Shown here in pieces: positions 259-18,885 of a stretch of 20,000 nt of DNA; positions within the stretch are counted from its first letter, which is position 1, and each line of letters opens with the position of its first letter. The DNA comes from an uncultured virus (IMG/VR IMGVR_UViG_3300010158_000057) (lineage: Duplodnaviria > Heunggongvirae > Uroviricota > Caudoviricetes), in IMG/VR virus record IMGVR_UViG_3300010158_000057. The stretch is one strand, 5' to 3'. Made by a program: the position numbers and the translations under genes. The notes beneath the pieces are model-generated. The model had not been told where the DNA came from. It made no database searches and was given only the letters and a program-made list of their open reading frames with translations.

Positions 259-1081
259 CGTTTTTCTCTATAGTGTCTGCTGTTAGAAAGGGTTTATCCA
301 AAACTTTATCCTCATAGGCATGATATTGACTAAGCATGGTCTTGTACTTTTCAGTTGCCATACTAAGAATTTCCATTTCACGACCTTCTTTTTCTCTTAC
401 GTCTTCGTCTTCTAACATTCGGATAAGACCTACCCAAGAGCTTTTTCCGTCTTCTATTCTTTTGATTCTTTGTTCTCTGGTAGCCTTGAGATCCTTGCTG
501 ATCTTTTGTTGCTCGTTTAAGAGCTTGGTATATTCATTAGTATAATTCGCAATACTATTGCGAGCAAAGCTCAGTTGTGTTTCTAGGTTGGCCAGTTTTG
601 GAATGTCTCTGTCTGTCTCGGATTTTTCATATTCTTTATCTACTTGTTTTTGTAGTTTCTCTGTTTCTGATATGTGTCTTTTTCTTTCTTTCATGCTTCG
701 ATTAATAAGAATGTCAATAGTAATAAATTGTTTAATCTGTAGTTCTTCTGCTGCTAAAACATCTTCTCTAAACTGTTTAATTAATCCTATCCATGTATCT
801 TCAAAATATTTTAGTTCACCAGTATCTTCGTCAAACTGTCTGAGTATCTCTGACCAAAACGTTTTGGCGTGCAGTTTTTGTCTTAGGATTTCTTGTTCAT
901 TTCTATCTTCTGACGAAACGACTAATTTATTCTCTGACACATACCTTTGTATGGGTGGAAGATTTCTGTTCAGAGCTTCGGCTATATCCTCTAAAGACAA
1001 AGAACCAAAGTTGTCTGTTATGAACTTTTCCTCTTCGAGACTTAATTGTCCTCGTTTTCTTGGAGATTTTCTGGTGTCCAC
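251..1081 (-). CDS. Hypothetical protein with N-terminal HTH-like segment and long coiled coil
   Basis: 276-aa ORF. LSLEEEKFITDNFGSLSLEDIAEALNRN resembles a Myb/HTH motif; the C-terminal half is charged and heptad-rich. Operon-like overlaps with both neighbours. Confidence 0.75.
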   Translation of the reverse strand: MDTRKSPRKRGQLSLEEEKFITDNFGSLSLEDIAEALNRNLPPIQRYVSENKLVVSSEDRNEQEILRQKLHAKTFWSEILRQFDEDTGELKYFEDTWIGLIKQFREDVLAAEELQIKQFITIDILINRSMKERKRHISETEKLQKQVDKEYEKSETDRDIPKLANLETQLSFARNSIANYTNEYTKLLNEQQKISKDLKATREQRIKRIEDGKSSWVGLIRMLEDEDVREKEGREMEILSMATEKYKTMLSQYHAYEDKVLDKPFLTADTIEKNDE

Positions 1082-1743
1082 TTGTTGTTCCTGAGTATTT
1101 CGTTAATGTGACTTTTTAGTTTATCAAGTTGCTGTCTGGGAATTTTAAGTCCATGTTTAAGCTTTAAATAAGTTTCTCTATATTCTGATTGAACATGTTG
1201 ATCCAAAAATTTAATAATCTCATTGTTTTGTATGTTATTGAAAAGCTCATCTTTAGCTAGGGTATTATGTAAATTTTCATGATCACTAATATAAGATGGC
1301 TGCATAATGTTCTTTTTAGAGTCATTTCGACTTGCCCATGCTGAATATAATTCGCACTCTGTTTTGTCGGTATACTTGGAACATTGATTTGTTGAACATT
1401 GATATGCTTTGTCAAAAAGAGGACAAGTTAAACATGGCTTGTCGGGTCTCTGGTAATTATTCCTTTTATAATTGAATAGACGATTACGAACATGGGTCCA
1501 TAAGAAATTTTCTAATGGGCGTGAGTGATCGTACTTTTCTAATCCTTCAAGAGCAAAAATAGCCGCTTGTTGTTTCATATCATCAAAGTCATGATATCCA
1601 AATTTGAATTTATTAGCTAGTCTTCTACTTATGTTATCTAAAACTATTAAAAATTCCTCTTCTGACACACCATATAAATTAGCGCTATTAATTTTTTTCT
1701 TTTTGCTTTTTAGTGTTATTTTCTTCTTCTTGTTGTTCGGCAT
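1042..1743 (-). CDS. Phage sigma-70-like RNA polymerase sigma factor with Cys-rich insert
   Basis: Region-2-like motif DFDDMKQQAAIFALEGLEKYDHSRPLENFLWTHVRNRLFNYKR, then CLTC-x8-C-x4-C-x8-C, then a weak region-4-like C-terminus. Confidence 0.7.
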   Translation of the reverse strand: MPNNKKKKITLKSKKKKINSANLYGVSEEEFLIVLDNISRRLANKFKFGYHDFDDMKQQAAIFALEGLEKYDHSRPLENFLWTHVRNRLFNYKRNNYQRPDKPCLTCPLFDKAYQCSTNQCSKYTDKTECELYSAWASRNDSKKNIMQPSYISDHENLHNTLAKDELFNNIQNNEIIKFLDQHVQSEYRETYLKLKHGLKIPRQQLDKLKSHINEILRNNKWTPENLQENEDN

Positions 1744-7148: not shown

Positions 7149-8960
7149 ATGTGTGGTATAGTAGCTTACAAAGGCAAGCAGAAATGCTTGTCTTTTTTGC
7201 TTGATGGACTTCAATCTCTGGAATATAGGGGTTATGATAGTGCTGGCATCTGCTATTTGGTCAACCAGACTTTAATAAATGTCAAACAGACTGGTAGCGT
7301 GGAAGATTTAAAAAAGGTTGTTAAAAACCCCCATATCGAAGCCTACAGCGGCATTGGCCACACCCGATGGGCCACCCACGGAAAGCCCTGTAAAAGGAAT
7401 TCTCATCCTCATCTGACCAGCGACAATAAATTGGCCATAATCCACAATGGTATAATTGAGAATTACCAAGAATTAAAGGATAGTCTGGAGAAAAAGTATA
7501 AGTTCAAAAGCGACACTGATTCTGAAGTCCTTTTGTATCAAATATATGAATTTGTGCAGGAAGGAGAGGATATTTTAACGAGCGTCAAGTGCGCTCTTAG
7601 GAAAATTGTCGGGGCCTTTGCTATGGTGGTGTTGGGGGATAACGGTCAAATGATAGTGGCTCGAAAAGGAAGTCCTTTGGTAATAGGATTGGGGGTAAAT
7701 GAGATAATGGTGGGGAGTGATAGTGGGGCTTTTGGTGATAGGGTAAGTTTGGGGCTGGTTTATTTAAAAGATAATAGTGTGGGGGAAATTACGGACAAAT
7801 TGGCCGTATATGATCTTCATAACGATATAGAAATTGATTATGAGATTGAGCAGGTATATAATCATAATTTGAGGGTGGAAAAGGGAAGTTATGATAGTTT
7901 CATGCTTAAGGAGATTTTTGAGCAACCAAGGGTGATTGATGATTGCTTGAAGGGGCGACTTGATGGATACCGGATTAAATTGGGGGGATTGATTGGATAT
8001 GAGAATTTATTTAAAAAGGTAAAGCATATAACCATAGTGAGTTGTGGGTCAAGTTGGCATTCGTCTTTGATTGCAAAATATTATATTGAGGAATTTTGTA
8101 AAATTAAGGTGAGTGTGGAATATGCTAGTGAGTTCCGATATCGAAAGCCATGTATTGAGCAGGGGGATATTGTTGTTGGAGTTAGTCAAAGTGGGGAAAC
8201 TGCAGATACTATTAGTGCTTTAGAAATAGCAAAGATATATGGGGCGATTATTGTGGGGATTTGTAATGTTCCTAATTCTACCATATCAAGAATGACTGAT
8301 TGTGGAATTTATTTGCGGGCTGGTGTGGAAGTGGGAGTTGCTAGTACTAAAGCTTTTACTAATCAGGTGGTTGTTTTATTGATGTTAAGTCTGTGGATTG
8401 AGCAGAACTTGGGGCTTATGGGTTTGGATCATAGAAAAACAATAATAGATGATTTGAGAGATTTGCCAGATTTGACTGAAAGATGTTTGAAGTGTTATGA
8501 GAATGTGGAATTTTTAGCAGAGACGATGGTTGGAATGACTAATTGCTTGTTTTTGGGGCGCGGATATAATTTTCCAATAGCTCTTGAGGGGGCTCTTAAG
8601 TTAAAAGAGATAAGTTATGTTCATGCTGAAGGATATCCGGCGGCGGAAATGAAACATGGACCTATTGCTTTGATAGATAAAAATATGCCAGTGATCGTTT
8701 TAGCTAATAATGTGGGGCAGTATGGGAAGATGGTAAATAATGTTAGTGAGATAATGGCACGAGACGGTAAGGTGATAAGCATATTTTCTGAGAATGCTGG
8801 ATTGGGGGATTATAAGATAAGGGTGCCAATGGTGACTGATGCTTTGAGTCCACTGATGGGAATAGTTCCTTTGCAGCTATTTTCTTACTACTCGGCAGTT
8901 TTGAGGGGCAAAAACGTTGATAAGCCACGGAATTTAGCCAAAAGCGTGACTGTAGAATAA
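7149..8960 (+). CDS. glmS: Glutamine--fructose-6-phosphate transaminase (isomerizing)
   Basis: MCGIV N-terminal nucleophile Cys, LEYRGYDSAG, GIGHTRWATHG, SQSGETADT, VASTKAFT, EGALKLKEISY, C-terminal DKPRNLAKSVTVE; 603 aa. Confidence 0.98.
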   Translation: MCGIVAYKGKQKCLSFLLDGLQSLEYRGYDSAGICYLVNQTLINVKQTGSVEDLKKVVKNPHIEAYSGIGHTRWATHGKPCKRNSHPHLTSDNKLAIIHNGIIENYQELKDSLEKKYKFKSDTDSEVLLYQIYEFVQEGEDILTSVKCALRKIVGAFAMVVLGDNGQMIVARKGSPLVIGLGVNEIMVGSDSGAFGDRVSLGLVYLKDNSVGEITDKLAVYDLHNDIEIDYEIEQVYNHNLRVEKGSYDSFMLKEIFEQPRVIDDCLKGRLDGYRIKLGGLIGYENLFKKVKHITIVSCGSSWHSSLIAKYYIEEFCKIKVSVEYASEFRYRKPCIEQGDIVVGVSQSGETADTISALEIAKIYGAIIVGICNVPNSTISRMTDCGIYLRAGVEVGVASTKAFTNQVVVLLMLSLWIEQNLGLMGLDHRKTIIDDLRDLPDLTERCLKCYENVEFLAETMVGMTNCLFLGRGYNFPIALEGALKLKEISYVHAEGYPAAEMKHGPIALIDKNMPVIVLANNVGQYGKMVNNVSEIMARDGKVISIFSENAGLGDYKIRVPMVTDALSPLMGIVPLQLFSYYSAVLRGKNVDKPRNLAKSVTVE

Positions 8961-12843: not shown

Positions 12844-12852
12844 GAGTCTCAG

Positions 12853-12899
12853 CTAACCCTACGGGTTTGGGTGGTTTGGATATAGTCAGCATAGTCAGC
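12853..12899 (+). repeat. Second repeat family, copy 1 (hairpin + tandem ATAGTCAG)
   Basis: CTAACCCTACGGGTTTGGG...ATAGTCAGCATAGTCAGC, matches 16892-16939. Confidence 0.7.
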
Positions 12900-16749: not shown

Positions 16750-16895
16750 TTACCGATACATACATGGTCATGAAGGGTACTAAGATTGTAGGCTATGTTC
16801 ATGCGTACAGTTCTTATCATGCGTTGTCTATGGCTGAAAAGCTATACGGGAAGAATTTGATGCTTGAAAGAATCTCTCGTGTTTGTCCCTCCTAA
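16746..16895 (+). CDS. Small hypothetical protein (49 aa)
   Basis: GGAGG RBS and ATGA overlap. Confidence 0.65.
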   Translation: MITDTYMVMKGTKIVGYVHAYSSYHALSMAEKLYGKNLMLERISRVCPS

Positions 16896-16939
16896 CCCTA
16901 CGGGGTTGGGCTGGGTGGGCATAGTCAGCACATAGTCAG
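16892..16939 (+). repeat. Second repeat family, copy 2 (hairpin + tandem ATAGTCAG)
   Basis: CTAACCCTACGGGGTTGGG...ATAGTCAGCACATAGTCAG. Confidence 0.7.
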
Positions 16940-16989: not shown

Positions 16990-17196
16990 ATGCTGACAAG
17001 TGAAGAAAAAGGTTTGATTGCTGGTCGTGTGGCTAGTTTTGCTATGAAGATGATTATACAGGCTATTGATTATAATCCTGAGCTTATGACCGCAGAACTG
17101 GATAAGTTTCAGGCTTTTATCTGTGGTGCTCTTGAGATTGCCAAGAGGGATGGGGTGGTTAGGGTTCGTGAGTCTATTGGGGCTAGTAACAACTAA
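16990..17196 (+). CDS. Small hypothetical protein
   Basis: 68 aa, TAAGGAG RBS; stop 3 nt before element copy 9. Confidence 0.75.
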   Translation: MLTSEEKGLIAGRVASFAMKMIIQAIDYNPELMTAELDKFQAFICGALEIAKRDGVVRVRESIGASNN

Positions 17197-17199
17197 TCG

Positions 17200-17277
17200 T
17201 AAGTCCTTATCCTTAAACAACTTAGGGATAGGGCGGGCGGCCCTGCTTGACATAAGTACTTATGGTCTATAGAGTTA
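17200..17277. repeat. 78-bp double-palindrome element, copy 9
   Basis: TAAGTCCTT-N7-AACAACTTA / 28 bp / TAAGTACTT-N7-ATAGAGTTA. Confidence 0.9.
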
Positions 17278-17317
17278 CGTCAATCTAAAAATTTTTCAGA
17301 ATTTCTGTAGAGAGGGC

Positions 17318-17346
17318 TTGACAATTGACGATAATAGATGTAGAAT
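17318..17346 (+). promoter_or_regulatory. Sigma-70-type promoter of the putative ncRNA
   Basis: TTGACA-17-TAGAAT with CGATAATAG in the spacer. Confidence 0.8.
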
Positions 17347-17352
17347 ACGAGA

Positions 17353-18335
17353 GTTCGAGCCGATCATTGACAATACGACGCGGGTTGCAAGGTTGCAATG
17401 AGCAACTCCCCAATAGCTACCATGGGAGCTGGGAAGTTAAATAGGTGGTCAAGTTCATGGTTTATTCCAAAAGACGAAACCACCCACCCGCACAATACAA
17501 GCAGATGAGGGCCGCTGGCAGAATGATATCAAAGAAGCCACGGTTAAATGCAAGGCCGAGTATGGCATAACCCAATCTGATTGTGAACACCCTCGCAGCG
17601 ACGGTTAGTCGTTGTGCATAACCTAATGAAGAGGGGACGCGGGATAATAAAGATGTGACTCCCGCACAACACAAGCGAACTGAAAGAACTCGCCAAGAGA
17701 CCCAACGGTCACACTTGGGAGAGAATGAGAGAAAGGAGCTTCAGTTCCAAAGCCCGTGGGTCCATGCCTTGGACTAGGTTGGGTAACTCATTACGATAAG
17801 CACCGCATGTCGCGGCAGCGATGGTGCTGACAGTGTTGGTTACGCACTGGATAGTAATGCCAATCTATGGGGGATCGCGTCCCCACCACGTTATAATACA
17901 ATCCGGTATTATCCTTCATCGGGTAATGGAGTGAATTAACACCACGGCGCTAAAACCGTGTCTTATCTTTCATCGGGTAAGATCGCTGAACTAACAGCCG
18001 GATACCGAACAACCAGTAACCGTCGCCTCTGAGCCTCTGTGTATGTTGGAGTCATGACCCAAAGGAAGCAGCGTGGACGGTTTCCACTAAGTAATTGCCT
18101 ATTCGGGGCATTTAAATACCGAGTCTTAGGTGGATTATAGAACCGGATCGTAAATGGTTCGCTGGTTATAAACAGGGGTCGGATAGATACCACAGGGTAA
18201 CTTGTGGTTGGTAATGTGCGTGATACCGGACACTTATTGTAAAACTATCGTAGTGATAAAAACAAGCACGTCCTAGCGGCGTATGGGGTGCGATTCCCAT
18301 ATCATTGCAAGTCGATCCATTTACAACCGGTATAC
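17353..18335 (+). ncRNA. Candidate large structured non-coding RNA (about 950-980 nt; GOLLD/ROOL size class, family unassigned)
   Basis: No plus-strand ORF of 60 aa or more behind a strong promoter. More than 20 nested complementary segments found by eye, a GUAA tetraloop, duplicated hairpins and a boxA-like leader. Boundaries are approximate. Confidence 0.7.
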
Positions 18336-18353
18336 AATACTCTCCGTGAGACG

Positions 18354-18431
18354 TAAGTTCCAGTGAACAAAGGACTTGCGTCAAAACCGGCCCGCCGAAT
18401 TTGTTCTAACTCATTATACCACAAAACTTTA
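18354..18431. repeat. 78-bp double-palindrome element, copy 10
   Basis: TAAGTTCCA-N7-AAGGACTTG / 28 bp / TAACTCATT-N7-AAAACTTTA. Confidence 0.85.
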
Positions 18432-18462
18432 CGTCAAAAAGAATCTTCTAAAGAAAACTCCA

Positions 18463-18491
18463 TTGACAGGTCGATAATAGTAGTGTAGAAT
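18463..18491 (+). promoter_or_regulatory. Sigma-70-type promoter
   Basis: TTGACA-17-TAGAAT, nearly identical to the promoter at 16430. Confidence 0.8.
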
Positions 18492-18515
18492 GGCTTGACA
18501 CAAGAGGAGAATGTC

Positions 18516-18728
18516 ATGTTGAATGTCACACCAGAACTGATTGCTGAAGCAAAAGAACTTGCTAATGATAACTATGAGAGTTGGGGTCAGTATATCGTAG
18601 AATGCTATGAGGATAGTGAGTTGGCCGAAAGCCTTGAAGATTTTGACAGCCTAGACGAATGGGTTGAAGTTAGAATCTCGATAGCAAATATATACGAGGA
18701 AAGAGAAGCTTTTTATAGGTATGAATAA
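18516..18728 (+). CDS. Acidic small protein
   Basis: 70 aa, GAGGAG RBS, D/E-rich. Confidence 0.75.
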   Translation: MLNVTPELIAEAKELANDNYESWGQYIVECYEDSELAESLEDFDSLDEWVEVRISIANIYEEREAFYRYE

Positions 18729-18885
18729 AAACGAGGCGATCATTAAGATTTTGAGGGTTTTAAGGAGCCAATCGGCTGCTGTAAATAAACCCAATCGGGA
18801 AGAGGCATTGACTTTAGCAGATGAGCATGGTATAACTGCTAAGGAATTGATTGACACATGGGTAGAAATTTGTCGAAATATATAA
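18721..18885 (+). CDS. Small hypothetical protein (54 aa, not in ORF track)
   Basis: Overlaps both neighbours (8 nt, and TAATG). Confidence 0.55.
   Translation: MNKNEAIIKILRVLRSQSAAVNKPNREEALTLADEHGITAKELIDTWVEICRNI

Follow-up and report, generated by a model that had tools for sequence, protein, structure and literature searches.

What does a phage transcribe from a kilobase that has a strong promoter and no gene? The question is raised by positions 17353 to 18335 of a 20,000-nucleotide (nt) stretch of DNA, here called the window, from an uncultured virus of the Caudoviricetes (IMG/VR record IMGVR_UViG_3300010158_000057); the window belongs to a freshwater phage contig, and its DNA is identical to the metagenome locus L028, which comes from a contig of 159 kb. 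A first-pass annotation had described this region as free of open reading frames (ORFs) and densely base-paired and had proposed that it encodes one large ornate RNA of the GOLLD or ROOL kind. We found instead about eight independently folding small RNA modules strung together in one promoter-driven, non-coding unit on the plus strand. From 5' to 3' the order is leader, M1, module A, M3, M4, D1, core, M7 and M8, and D1, core, M7 and M8 are under selection for base pairing on the plus strand. BLAST blocks and multiple alignments gave the general plan: the modules are self-contained folds of 75 to 165 nt that are each closed by a terminal helix of their own. Between most of them stands a short CA-rich linker, unpaired and with the consensus CAAUACAA. 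The notion of a single giant RNA of fixed architecture was not borne out, as the parts separate and are reordered in related phages, and the region reads best as a modular array of small RNAs.

The absence of genes was confirmed. The longest plus-strand ORFs between 17353 and 18335 have 41 and 40 codons' worth of amino acids, both with GTG starts. Between 17347 and 18470, each of the six frames contains 11 to 30 stops of mixed kinds, and the best frame still holds 7 TAA, 3 TAG and 1 TGA, so that no single stop-codon reassignment would open a gene; an alternative genetic code was therefore rejected, every frame remaining closed. The strong promoter was confirmed as well: the sigma-70-type promoter TTGACA-17-TAGAAT (17318..17346, plus strand) agrees with the consensus at 11 of 12 positions and has a predicted start near 17353, and the promoters of the relatives' arrays aligned at the equivalent upstream position. 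Behind it lies a conserved 5' leader (17353..17379, plus strand) with a linker-like ACAAUAC at its end, which recurs nearly identically right behind the promoters of three related loci (L066, L082 and L121).

The region fits no Rfam family. The Rfam 15 covariance models, among them those for GOLLD, ROOL, OLE, HEARO, tmRNA, RNase P RNA and both groups of introns (I and II), gave no match at the gathering score across the 20-kb window; at an E value of up to 10, only five chance-level matches were obtained for 17000-18700, the best with an E value of 3.1 and none to any of the families just named. In ten relative loci, tRNA was the sole Rfam family to reach an E value of 1. ARAGORN reported neither tRNA nor tmRNA in the 20-kb window, and the INPHARED phage collection contained no blastn match to 17200-18500. 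Folding was better than in shuffled sequence, but only modestly so, with whole-region z-scores of -2.99 on the plus strand and -2.48 on the minus strand (20 shuffles each) and z-scores of single modules between +0.01 and -3.48. Thermodynamics by itself would not settle RNA status; the strong evidence is the covariation in relatives.

Relatives were collected by pattern scans. A scan of IMG/VR seeded on the duplicated hairpin of the core gave 10 true relatives among 14 loci, a second pattern added one more, and a metagenome scan gave 21 among 35 loci; the other 4 IMG/VR loci (L004, L007, L009 and L013) and 14 metagenome loci had no similarity to the region and were discarded as chance matches. 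Pooled, these relatives gave 24 distinct core-bearing sequences. A scan for the D1 motif added 81 further viral loci and two contigs filed under bacterial metagenome-assembled genomes, one as Candidatus Planktophila and one as an Alphaproteobacteria member (L144 and L145). These two have the same promoter, dyad and RNA-array architecture; they may be phage DNA that was binned wrongly, or they may point to the host.

Module D1 (17755..17890, plus strand) was defined from a covariance model and alignments as a cloverleaf-like four-way junction with a pseudoknot, TAACT/GGTTA. Its closing stem encloses a short 5' hairpin, a long branched arm and, adjoining the stem, a 3' hairpin; the pseudoknot joins the loop TAACY to the strand GGTTA. 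The domain closed by CGTGG 17755/CCACG 17886 and its inner helices had been picked out by eye, and the relatives keep them: in a hand alignment of 26 copies, 91.9% of the cells were paired, as against at most 44% with the partners slid, and 22 of 46 pairs carried compensatory changes, a count that none of 500 shuffles reached. The pseudoknot was paired in 100% of the cells of this alignment. A covariance model built from the hand alignment found 104 matches in 282 kb of collected DNA, one of which is the single match in the window (17750-17903, 147.5 bits). Among 81 distinct D1 sequences, 93.9% of cells were paired and 26 of 41 pairs were compensatory (equalled by 0 of 500 shuffles), in an alignment fitted to the model, which favours the structure.

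The core module (17901..18003, plus strand) follows D1 and consists of a closing stem, ATCCGG/CCGGAT, round three hairpins. Predicted earlier as a multiloop closed by ATCCGG 17901/CCGGAT 17998, it was retained in 24 distinct sequences with 99.7% of cells paired, as against at most 41% in slid controls, and it has a fold z-score of -3.48. Its sequence is almost invariant, yet 7 of 32 pairs are compensatory, including 4 of 5 in the middle hairpin, and U-G, C-G and U-A interchange in the outer hairpins (1 and 3). The G-U pairs of the core and D1 would become A-C on the other strand, and their frequency indicates that the constraint acts on the plus-strand RNA, the strand that had been proposed. 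Hairpins 1 and 3 are near-duplicates with identical UUCAUC loops, and this twofold look suggests a dimeric binder. The corresponding DNA contains direct repeats of 30 nt (17897-17926 and 17951-17980) that are 80% identical and 54 nt apart. Pairing of the UUCAUC loops with GAUGAGGG of module A was considered and dropped, as there was no compensation: phages in which module A reads GAUGCGGG keep unchanged UUCAUC loops.

Module M7 (18011..18167, plus strand) is likewise a four-way junction, with the helices P1 (AACCAGT/GCTGGTT), P2 (AACCGTC/GACGGTT), P3 and P4, and was found in 66 loci, duplicates included. Across 21 sequences, 6 of 24 predicted pairs were compensatory. P4 has the conserved loop GGAUCGUAAAU, which contains CGUAAA, and stacks on the 3' strand of P1; one arm is missing in L006. 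Module M8 (18176..18335, plus strand), in which 14 of 51 predicted pairs were compensatory over 8 sequences, is closed by the helix GGGTCG/CGATCC. The covariation looked for among homologues was present in D1, core, M7 and M8. Inside M8 are a helix GATAG/CTATC, a variable hairpin at 18189-18208 and an embedded tRNA-like arm made up of an acceptor, AGTGAT 18252/ATCATT 18301, a hairpin at 18267-18281 and a T-arm-like hairpin at 18283-18300. In the relatives' tRNA-like element, the T arm is the homologue of the T-loop-like hairpin first noticed at 18282-18301. The GNRA loop at 18197-18200, to which weight had also been given, is not conserved, the helix staying while loop length and sequence vary.

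The M8 arm connects the array with tRNA. In relatives it scored 36.8 to 44.3 bits with the Rfam tRNA model, which has a threshold of 29 (L005, L052, L001 and L055), and it was called by ARAGORN in L001, L005, L052 and L060. The window's own arm (18252-18306) was called neither by Rfam tRNA, at more than 29 bits and with a 7-nt anticodon loop, nor by ARAGORN, which made no call on the L017 arm either. The window and L017 have in common an M8 variant without a D arm, which is itself conserved and shows a compensatory change in the inner hairpin. The anticodon regions of the relatives' arms are odd: ARAGORN gave a 4-base 'gaga' anticodon or 'aaa' at position 38 (L001:2586-2660(-), L005:2603-2681(-) and L055:682-753(-)), the L005-type arm has 17 nt in the Rfam alignment where the tRNA model has 13, and the L055-type arm has, by eye, a possible UAU anticodon with C at position 33. 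In M1, D1, M7 and M8, a hairpin directly abuts the 3' strand of the closing stem, as the T arm abuts the acceptor stem, and this acceptor/T-arm geometry is the one read by tRNA-maturation enzymes. Four near-complete relatives each carry a single array locus, with ordinary tRNA genes 3 to 8 kb downstream on the same strand and 8 to 9 Rfam tRNA matches per genome (the count for G001 including the array's own arm). RtcB was present in one of these four genomes; a CCA-adding enzyme was found in 0 of 4, as was Ro60 (TROVE, PF05731), whose profile control was positive in 2 of 14 genomes.

The 5' modules are less widespread, with the exception of module A. M1 (17380..17491, plus strand; closing stem GCGGGT/ACCCGC, fold z-score -1.82) has homologues in three other loci at 67 to 78% identity. 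Its GGTGG/CCACC hairpin stacks on the 3' strand of the closing stem in an acceptor/T-arm-like geometry, and M1 occupies the place that is held by a tRNA-Leu(UAA), directly 5' of module A, in four contigs (L011, L006, L030 and L032). Module A (17502..17579, plus strand), of about 80 nt, is closed by CAGAT/ATCTG and was found at 83 to 100% identity in 43 loci, duplicates included, with 22 distinct copies; none of its 12 predicted pairs covaried, because the sequence hardly varies. The helix CACAAT 17491/ATTGTG 17580, which had been drawn around it, proved specific to the window, and its 5' half is linker. Elsewhere module A is free-standing, as promoter, module A and hairpin or as promoter, tRNA-Leu(UAA), module A and hairpin, the hairpin being of the UNCG type, and in five contigs (L001, L002, L005, L006 and L011) it lies about 1.8 kb apart from D1 and the core. 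M3 (17590..17665, plus strand; hairpins CCCTC/GAGGG and GCGGGA/TCCCGC, fold z-score -2.37) matched only the window's own contig, had no homologue among the relatives and is specific to the window's phage. M4 (17677..17747, plus strand; fold z-score -1.81), a hairpin domain closed by GAACTGAA/TTCAGTTC, has homologues at 69 to 80% identity in L037 and L066. A hairpin GCTAAYCC-TACG-GGRTTTGG with a UNCG-type loop (TACG or TTCG) recurs in the window at 12846-12891 and 16885-16930, and such an element also lies 3' of module A and of a tRNA-Glu in relatives (L011, L002 and L062). Closing small RNA units and some cassettes, it may be a terminator or a 3' stabiliser.

How far the modules are independent of one another was seen from their neighbours. 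In the window, the linker stands at 17494..17500 (AAUACAA), 17668..17674 (AACACAA) and 17895..17901 (AAUACAA), all on the plus strand. AAYAYAA occurred within 18 nt 3' of D1 in 59 of 74 contexts, compared with 376 of 29368 background windows (1.3%); across the whole window, the enrichment was not significant (13 matches, 9.4 expected). Among the related lake phages, modules are gained, lost, duplicated and reordered. D1 itself is duplicated in L001, L010, L027 and L034, and of its 85 distinct contexts, 24 have M7 as the next module, 18 the core, 6 a cloverleaf of a second kind, 4 another D1 and 1 M8; some other neighbour follows in 30, and 2 are cut off by the contig end. Clustering the neighbours of D1 gave 16 clusters downstream and 12 upstream; cutting the arrays at the linker pattern was too crude for this purpose and recovered D1, M7 and M8 only. 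L037 and L052 carry extra modules that separate the core from M7, and an ORF follows the core directly in L040.

The relatives also contain ORF-free conserved modules that are absent from the window, located 5' of D1 in L002, L003, L008 and L047 and in a second unit after M7 in L035 and L046. This second unit is a promoter-driven string of three modules. Another module foreign to the window is a 100-nt element starting GATTGAAGAACAAG directly after a promoter. The module repertoire is larger than the window shows.

Expression of the region was supported in part by assembled contigs from four runs of four lake metatranscriptome studies. Positions 17499-17693 and 18182-18330 were each matched by contigs of two runs with 0 mismatches (three runs between them), and 18061-18319 by a contig of the fourth run with 4 mismatches. 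Early expression, as the first-pass annotation proposed, is a prediction from the promoter type. D1, the core and 17353-17498 were matched by none, gaps that are no evidence of absence. The ORF next to the array was also covered by RNA-run contigs, and DNA carry-over in these contigs is possible.

We consider that the stretch is probably a polycistronic precursor of stable small RNAs, some of them tRNA mimics, the processing and function being predicted. The enzymes with which the host matures tRNA would cleave the long transcript within the linkers or beside them, RNase P acting at the closing stems and an endonuclease and 3' trimming following, and the outcome would be a set of stable small RNAs as from a tRNA operon. 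The released RNAs might, speculatively, serve as tRNA mimics or as protein-binding decoys for host factors that handle tRNA, candidates being defence nucleases that cut tRNA. A phage tRNA is reported to counteract a defence system that cuts tRNA (PMC11464382), a precedent that makes the decoy idea a reasonable one.

Several observations weigh against this interpretation. D1, the core and M7 resemble tRNA only in their topology and do not match the Rfam tRNA model, and the 20 kb of the window hold no tRNA gene by ARAGORN. A tRNA-like 3' end (NCCA) on D1 was rejected: of 72 contexts, no more than 41 have CCA directly after the closing stem, and this CCA may just belong to the linker. The linker is absent from the flanks of ordinary tRNA genes in a relative and is found also 5' of the ribosome-binding sites of ORFs, and it may be a general spacer rather than a cleavage signal. 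The metatranscriptome contigs report presence only, not ends, strand or level, and one of them crosses the M7-M8 junction, so that at least some RNA is contiguous there. The order D1-core-M7 is constant in most core-bearing contigs, as a single multi-domain RNA would also give.

This last point bears on whether the region instead forms one RNA of about 1 kb that works as a unit, a new class beside GOLLD and ROOL with the modules as its domains. Such phage-associated ornate RNAs do exist (10.1101/2024.12.08.627333), the array has a single promoter, and apart from weak hairpins within the core there is no plus-strand terminator-like site between its modules. The kept D1-core-M7 order, seen in most of the 24 distinct core-bearing sequences, and the RNA-run contig spanning M7 and M8 would fit equally, and the near-invariant core could serve tertiary or intermolecular contacts. 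We nevertheless regard a single RNA as unlikely, given that each domain is closed by its own helix, that no covarying helix was found between modules and that most of the 85 D1 contexts are without a core, the downstream neighbours of D1 being of 16 kinds. In other phages module A forms a gene by itself, M3 is unique to the window's phage and M1 and M4 are rare, and no Rfam large-RNA model matches. Somewhat less likely again is a cis-acting leader, a folded RNA that controls its own transcript through terminator read-through or through the translation or stability of the early genes downstream. The put-type antitermination RNAs of lambdoid phages, which sit just after early promoters, offer a parallel. 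A ribosome-binding site and start codon do follow M7 within about 20 nt in L006, L008, L010, L011, L030 and L037, and follow the core in L040, but the first ORF downstream varies among these loci (L006/L011, L008, L010, L037, L040) and encodes at least four unrelated proteins, which is not the constant gene family expected of a riboswitch or leader. The boundary element and a fresh promoter intervene before the next gene in the window and in L012, no gene lies beyond the hairpin that terminates module A units, and each genome has one array locus as opposed to dozens of early promoters. The conserved feature that would suit a leader is a protein of 53 to 58 amino acids encoded within about 1 kb downstream in 51 loci (window copy at 18721-18885, plus strand). 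It belongs to no Pfam or PHROG family, lies in some cases directly 3' of the last module, and might be linked to the array or merely syntenic with it.

That the sequence is decayed or acts as DNA, being a degenerate tRNA cluster, a spacer or protein-binding DNA with twin TTCATCGGGTA iterons and without RNA function, appears very improbable and is already disfavoured by the covariation: compensatory pairs amount to 26/41 in D1, 7/32 in the core, 6/24 in M7 and 14/51 in M8, and the U-G, C-G and U-A changes of the core preserve pairs in plus-strand RNA only. In its favour are the loss of the D arm from the window's M8, the position of M1 where other phages have tRNA-Leu, the 30-nt core repeats 54 bp apart and the whole-region folding z-score of only about -3. 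Against it, the variant lacking the D arm is itself conserved, the window and L017 differing by a compensatory change, and module A is 83 to 100% identical over its 43 loci. Hidden coding, by small ORFs or an alternative genetic code, has next to no probability in our judgement. Its candidate is a 21-codon ORF with an ATG at 17505, within module A, and this was rejected as a gene: three of the 21 distinct copies (L141, L074 and L082) lack the start codon, a 1-nt deletion in L055-type copies shifts the frame and removes the stop, and there is no ribosome-binding site. The mixed stops of all six frames, described above, speak against any other gene, and the substitutions in D1 and the core track base pairs rather than codons.

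If the array is indeed a precursor of stable small RNAs, several known systems invite comparison. The nearest by setting and description are RNAC and RNAD of phage T4 (species 1 and 2 stable RNAs), which, according to PMC3014915 and PMC9697503, are small non-tRNA RNAs from the phage tRNA region without an assigned role. The array may be seen as analogous: it too would provide small non-tRNA RNAs in a tRNA region, with tRNA genes 3 to 8 kb downstream in relatives and a tRNA-Leu abutting module A in four contigs. T4 differs in having two such RNAs, as against up to eight here that have a common linker and are shuffled among phages. A search for the T4 capsid family gave no match in four relatives and is uninformative, the search control being silent too.

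The bacterial and phage Y RNAs YrlA and Yrn1, of 100 to 170 nt, carry a tRNA-like arm (acceptor, D and T) inside a larger fold with a separate closing stem. A single precursor can give rise to two Y RNAs, and in M. smegmatis RNase P cleaves the tRNA-like YrlA, which also receives CCA (PMC4201824). M8 resembles a YrlA-type RNA in its tRNA-like arm inside a fold closed by a stem (GGGUCG/CGAUCC, 14 of 51 pairs). The Y RNA motif GNCGAAN0-1G, as named in PMC4201824, is not present as such in the array, the nearest sequence being the invariant GUCGAUCC. Y RNAs adjoin Ro60, whereas the TROVE protein was found in none of the four relatives, and Y RNA models gave no match at an E value of 1 in ten relative loci or of 10 in the window.

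GOLLD and ROOL are like the array in being non-coding, highly structured, phage-associated and of unknown function, and are often near tRNA genes. They differ in that they are single RNAs of fixed multi-domain architecture, whereas the array is a variable string of self-contained modules with no Rfam match. With tRNA operons and phage tRNA clusters the array has in common cloverleaf-type RNAs placed head to tail behind one promoter, one member being Rfam-tRNA-like in relatives. Most of its modules are, in contrast, not tRNAs by any model, have 75 to 165 nt and include the D1 pseudoknot, and the ordinary tRNA genes of a relative, unlike the array, have no CAAUACAA linker between them. Searches of the full-text literature (supplementary files lying outside their scope) found no description of a transcript built from interchangeable RNA modules with a fixed linker, and those on T4 found only RNAC and RNAD.

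The modules thus add structured RNA families that are new to Rfam 15, namely module A, M7, M8, the core with its near-invariant sequence and D1, which has a pseudoknot and 81 distinct sequences, and their organisation as interchangeable modules joined by a fixed linker on one transcript is unreported in the literature found. A family so large and variable gives comparative leverage on the long-standing riddle, dating from T4 RNAC and RNAD, of phage stable RNAs near tRNA genes. Should the modules prove to be tRNA mimics or decoys, there would also be a connection with current work on phage tRNAs and with defence systems that target tRNA. A bolder extension, which we advance tentatively and think rather doubtful, is that uncultured freshwater giant phages possess an RNA cassette toolkit of well over a dozen cloverleaf-type families, joined at CAAUACAA, driven by one early promoter, released by host tRNA maturation and binding or acting as decoys of different host factors, such as defence enzymes that cut tRNA, with the joint as the point of both processing and recombination. 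Were this so, module shuffling would be the RNA-level counterpart of the shuffling of anti-defence genes.

The surroundings of the array are of two kinds. The right half of the window consists of early-type cassettes in series, each with a dyad element of about 90 nt, a near-consensus sigma-70 promoter and small ORFs. The dyad elements, of 70 to 98 nt and in 9 to 10 copies, lie 5' of the early-cassette promoters between 9000 and 20000 (for example, at 17183-17280 and 18368-18437). The second of these (18368..18437, no strand assigned), a member of the 10-copy repeat family, is the boundary element that closes the array unit, and the next promoter follows at 18463..18491. In the left half are genes for a sigma-like protein, for a GlmS homologue and for proteins without a known family. 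The GlmS homologue (7149-8960, plus strand) is a full-length GlmS-type glutamine-fructose-6-phosphate aminotransferase with SIS and GATase domains, and the sigma-like protein (1042-1743, minus strand) has a weak match to sigma-70 region 2.

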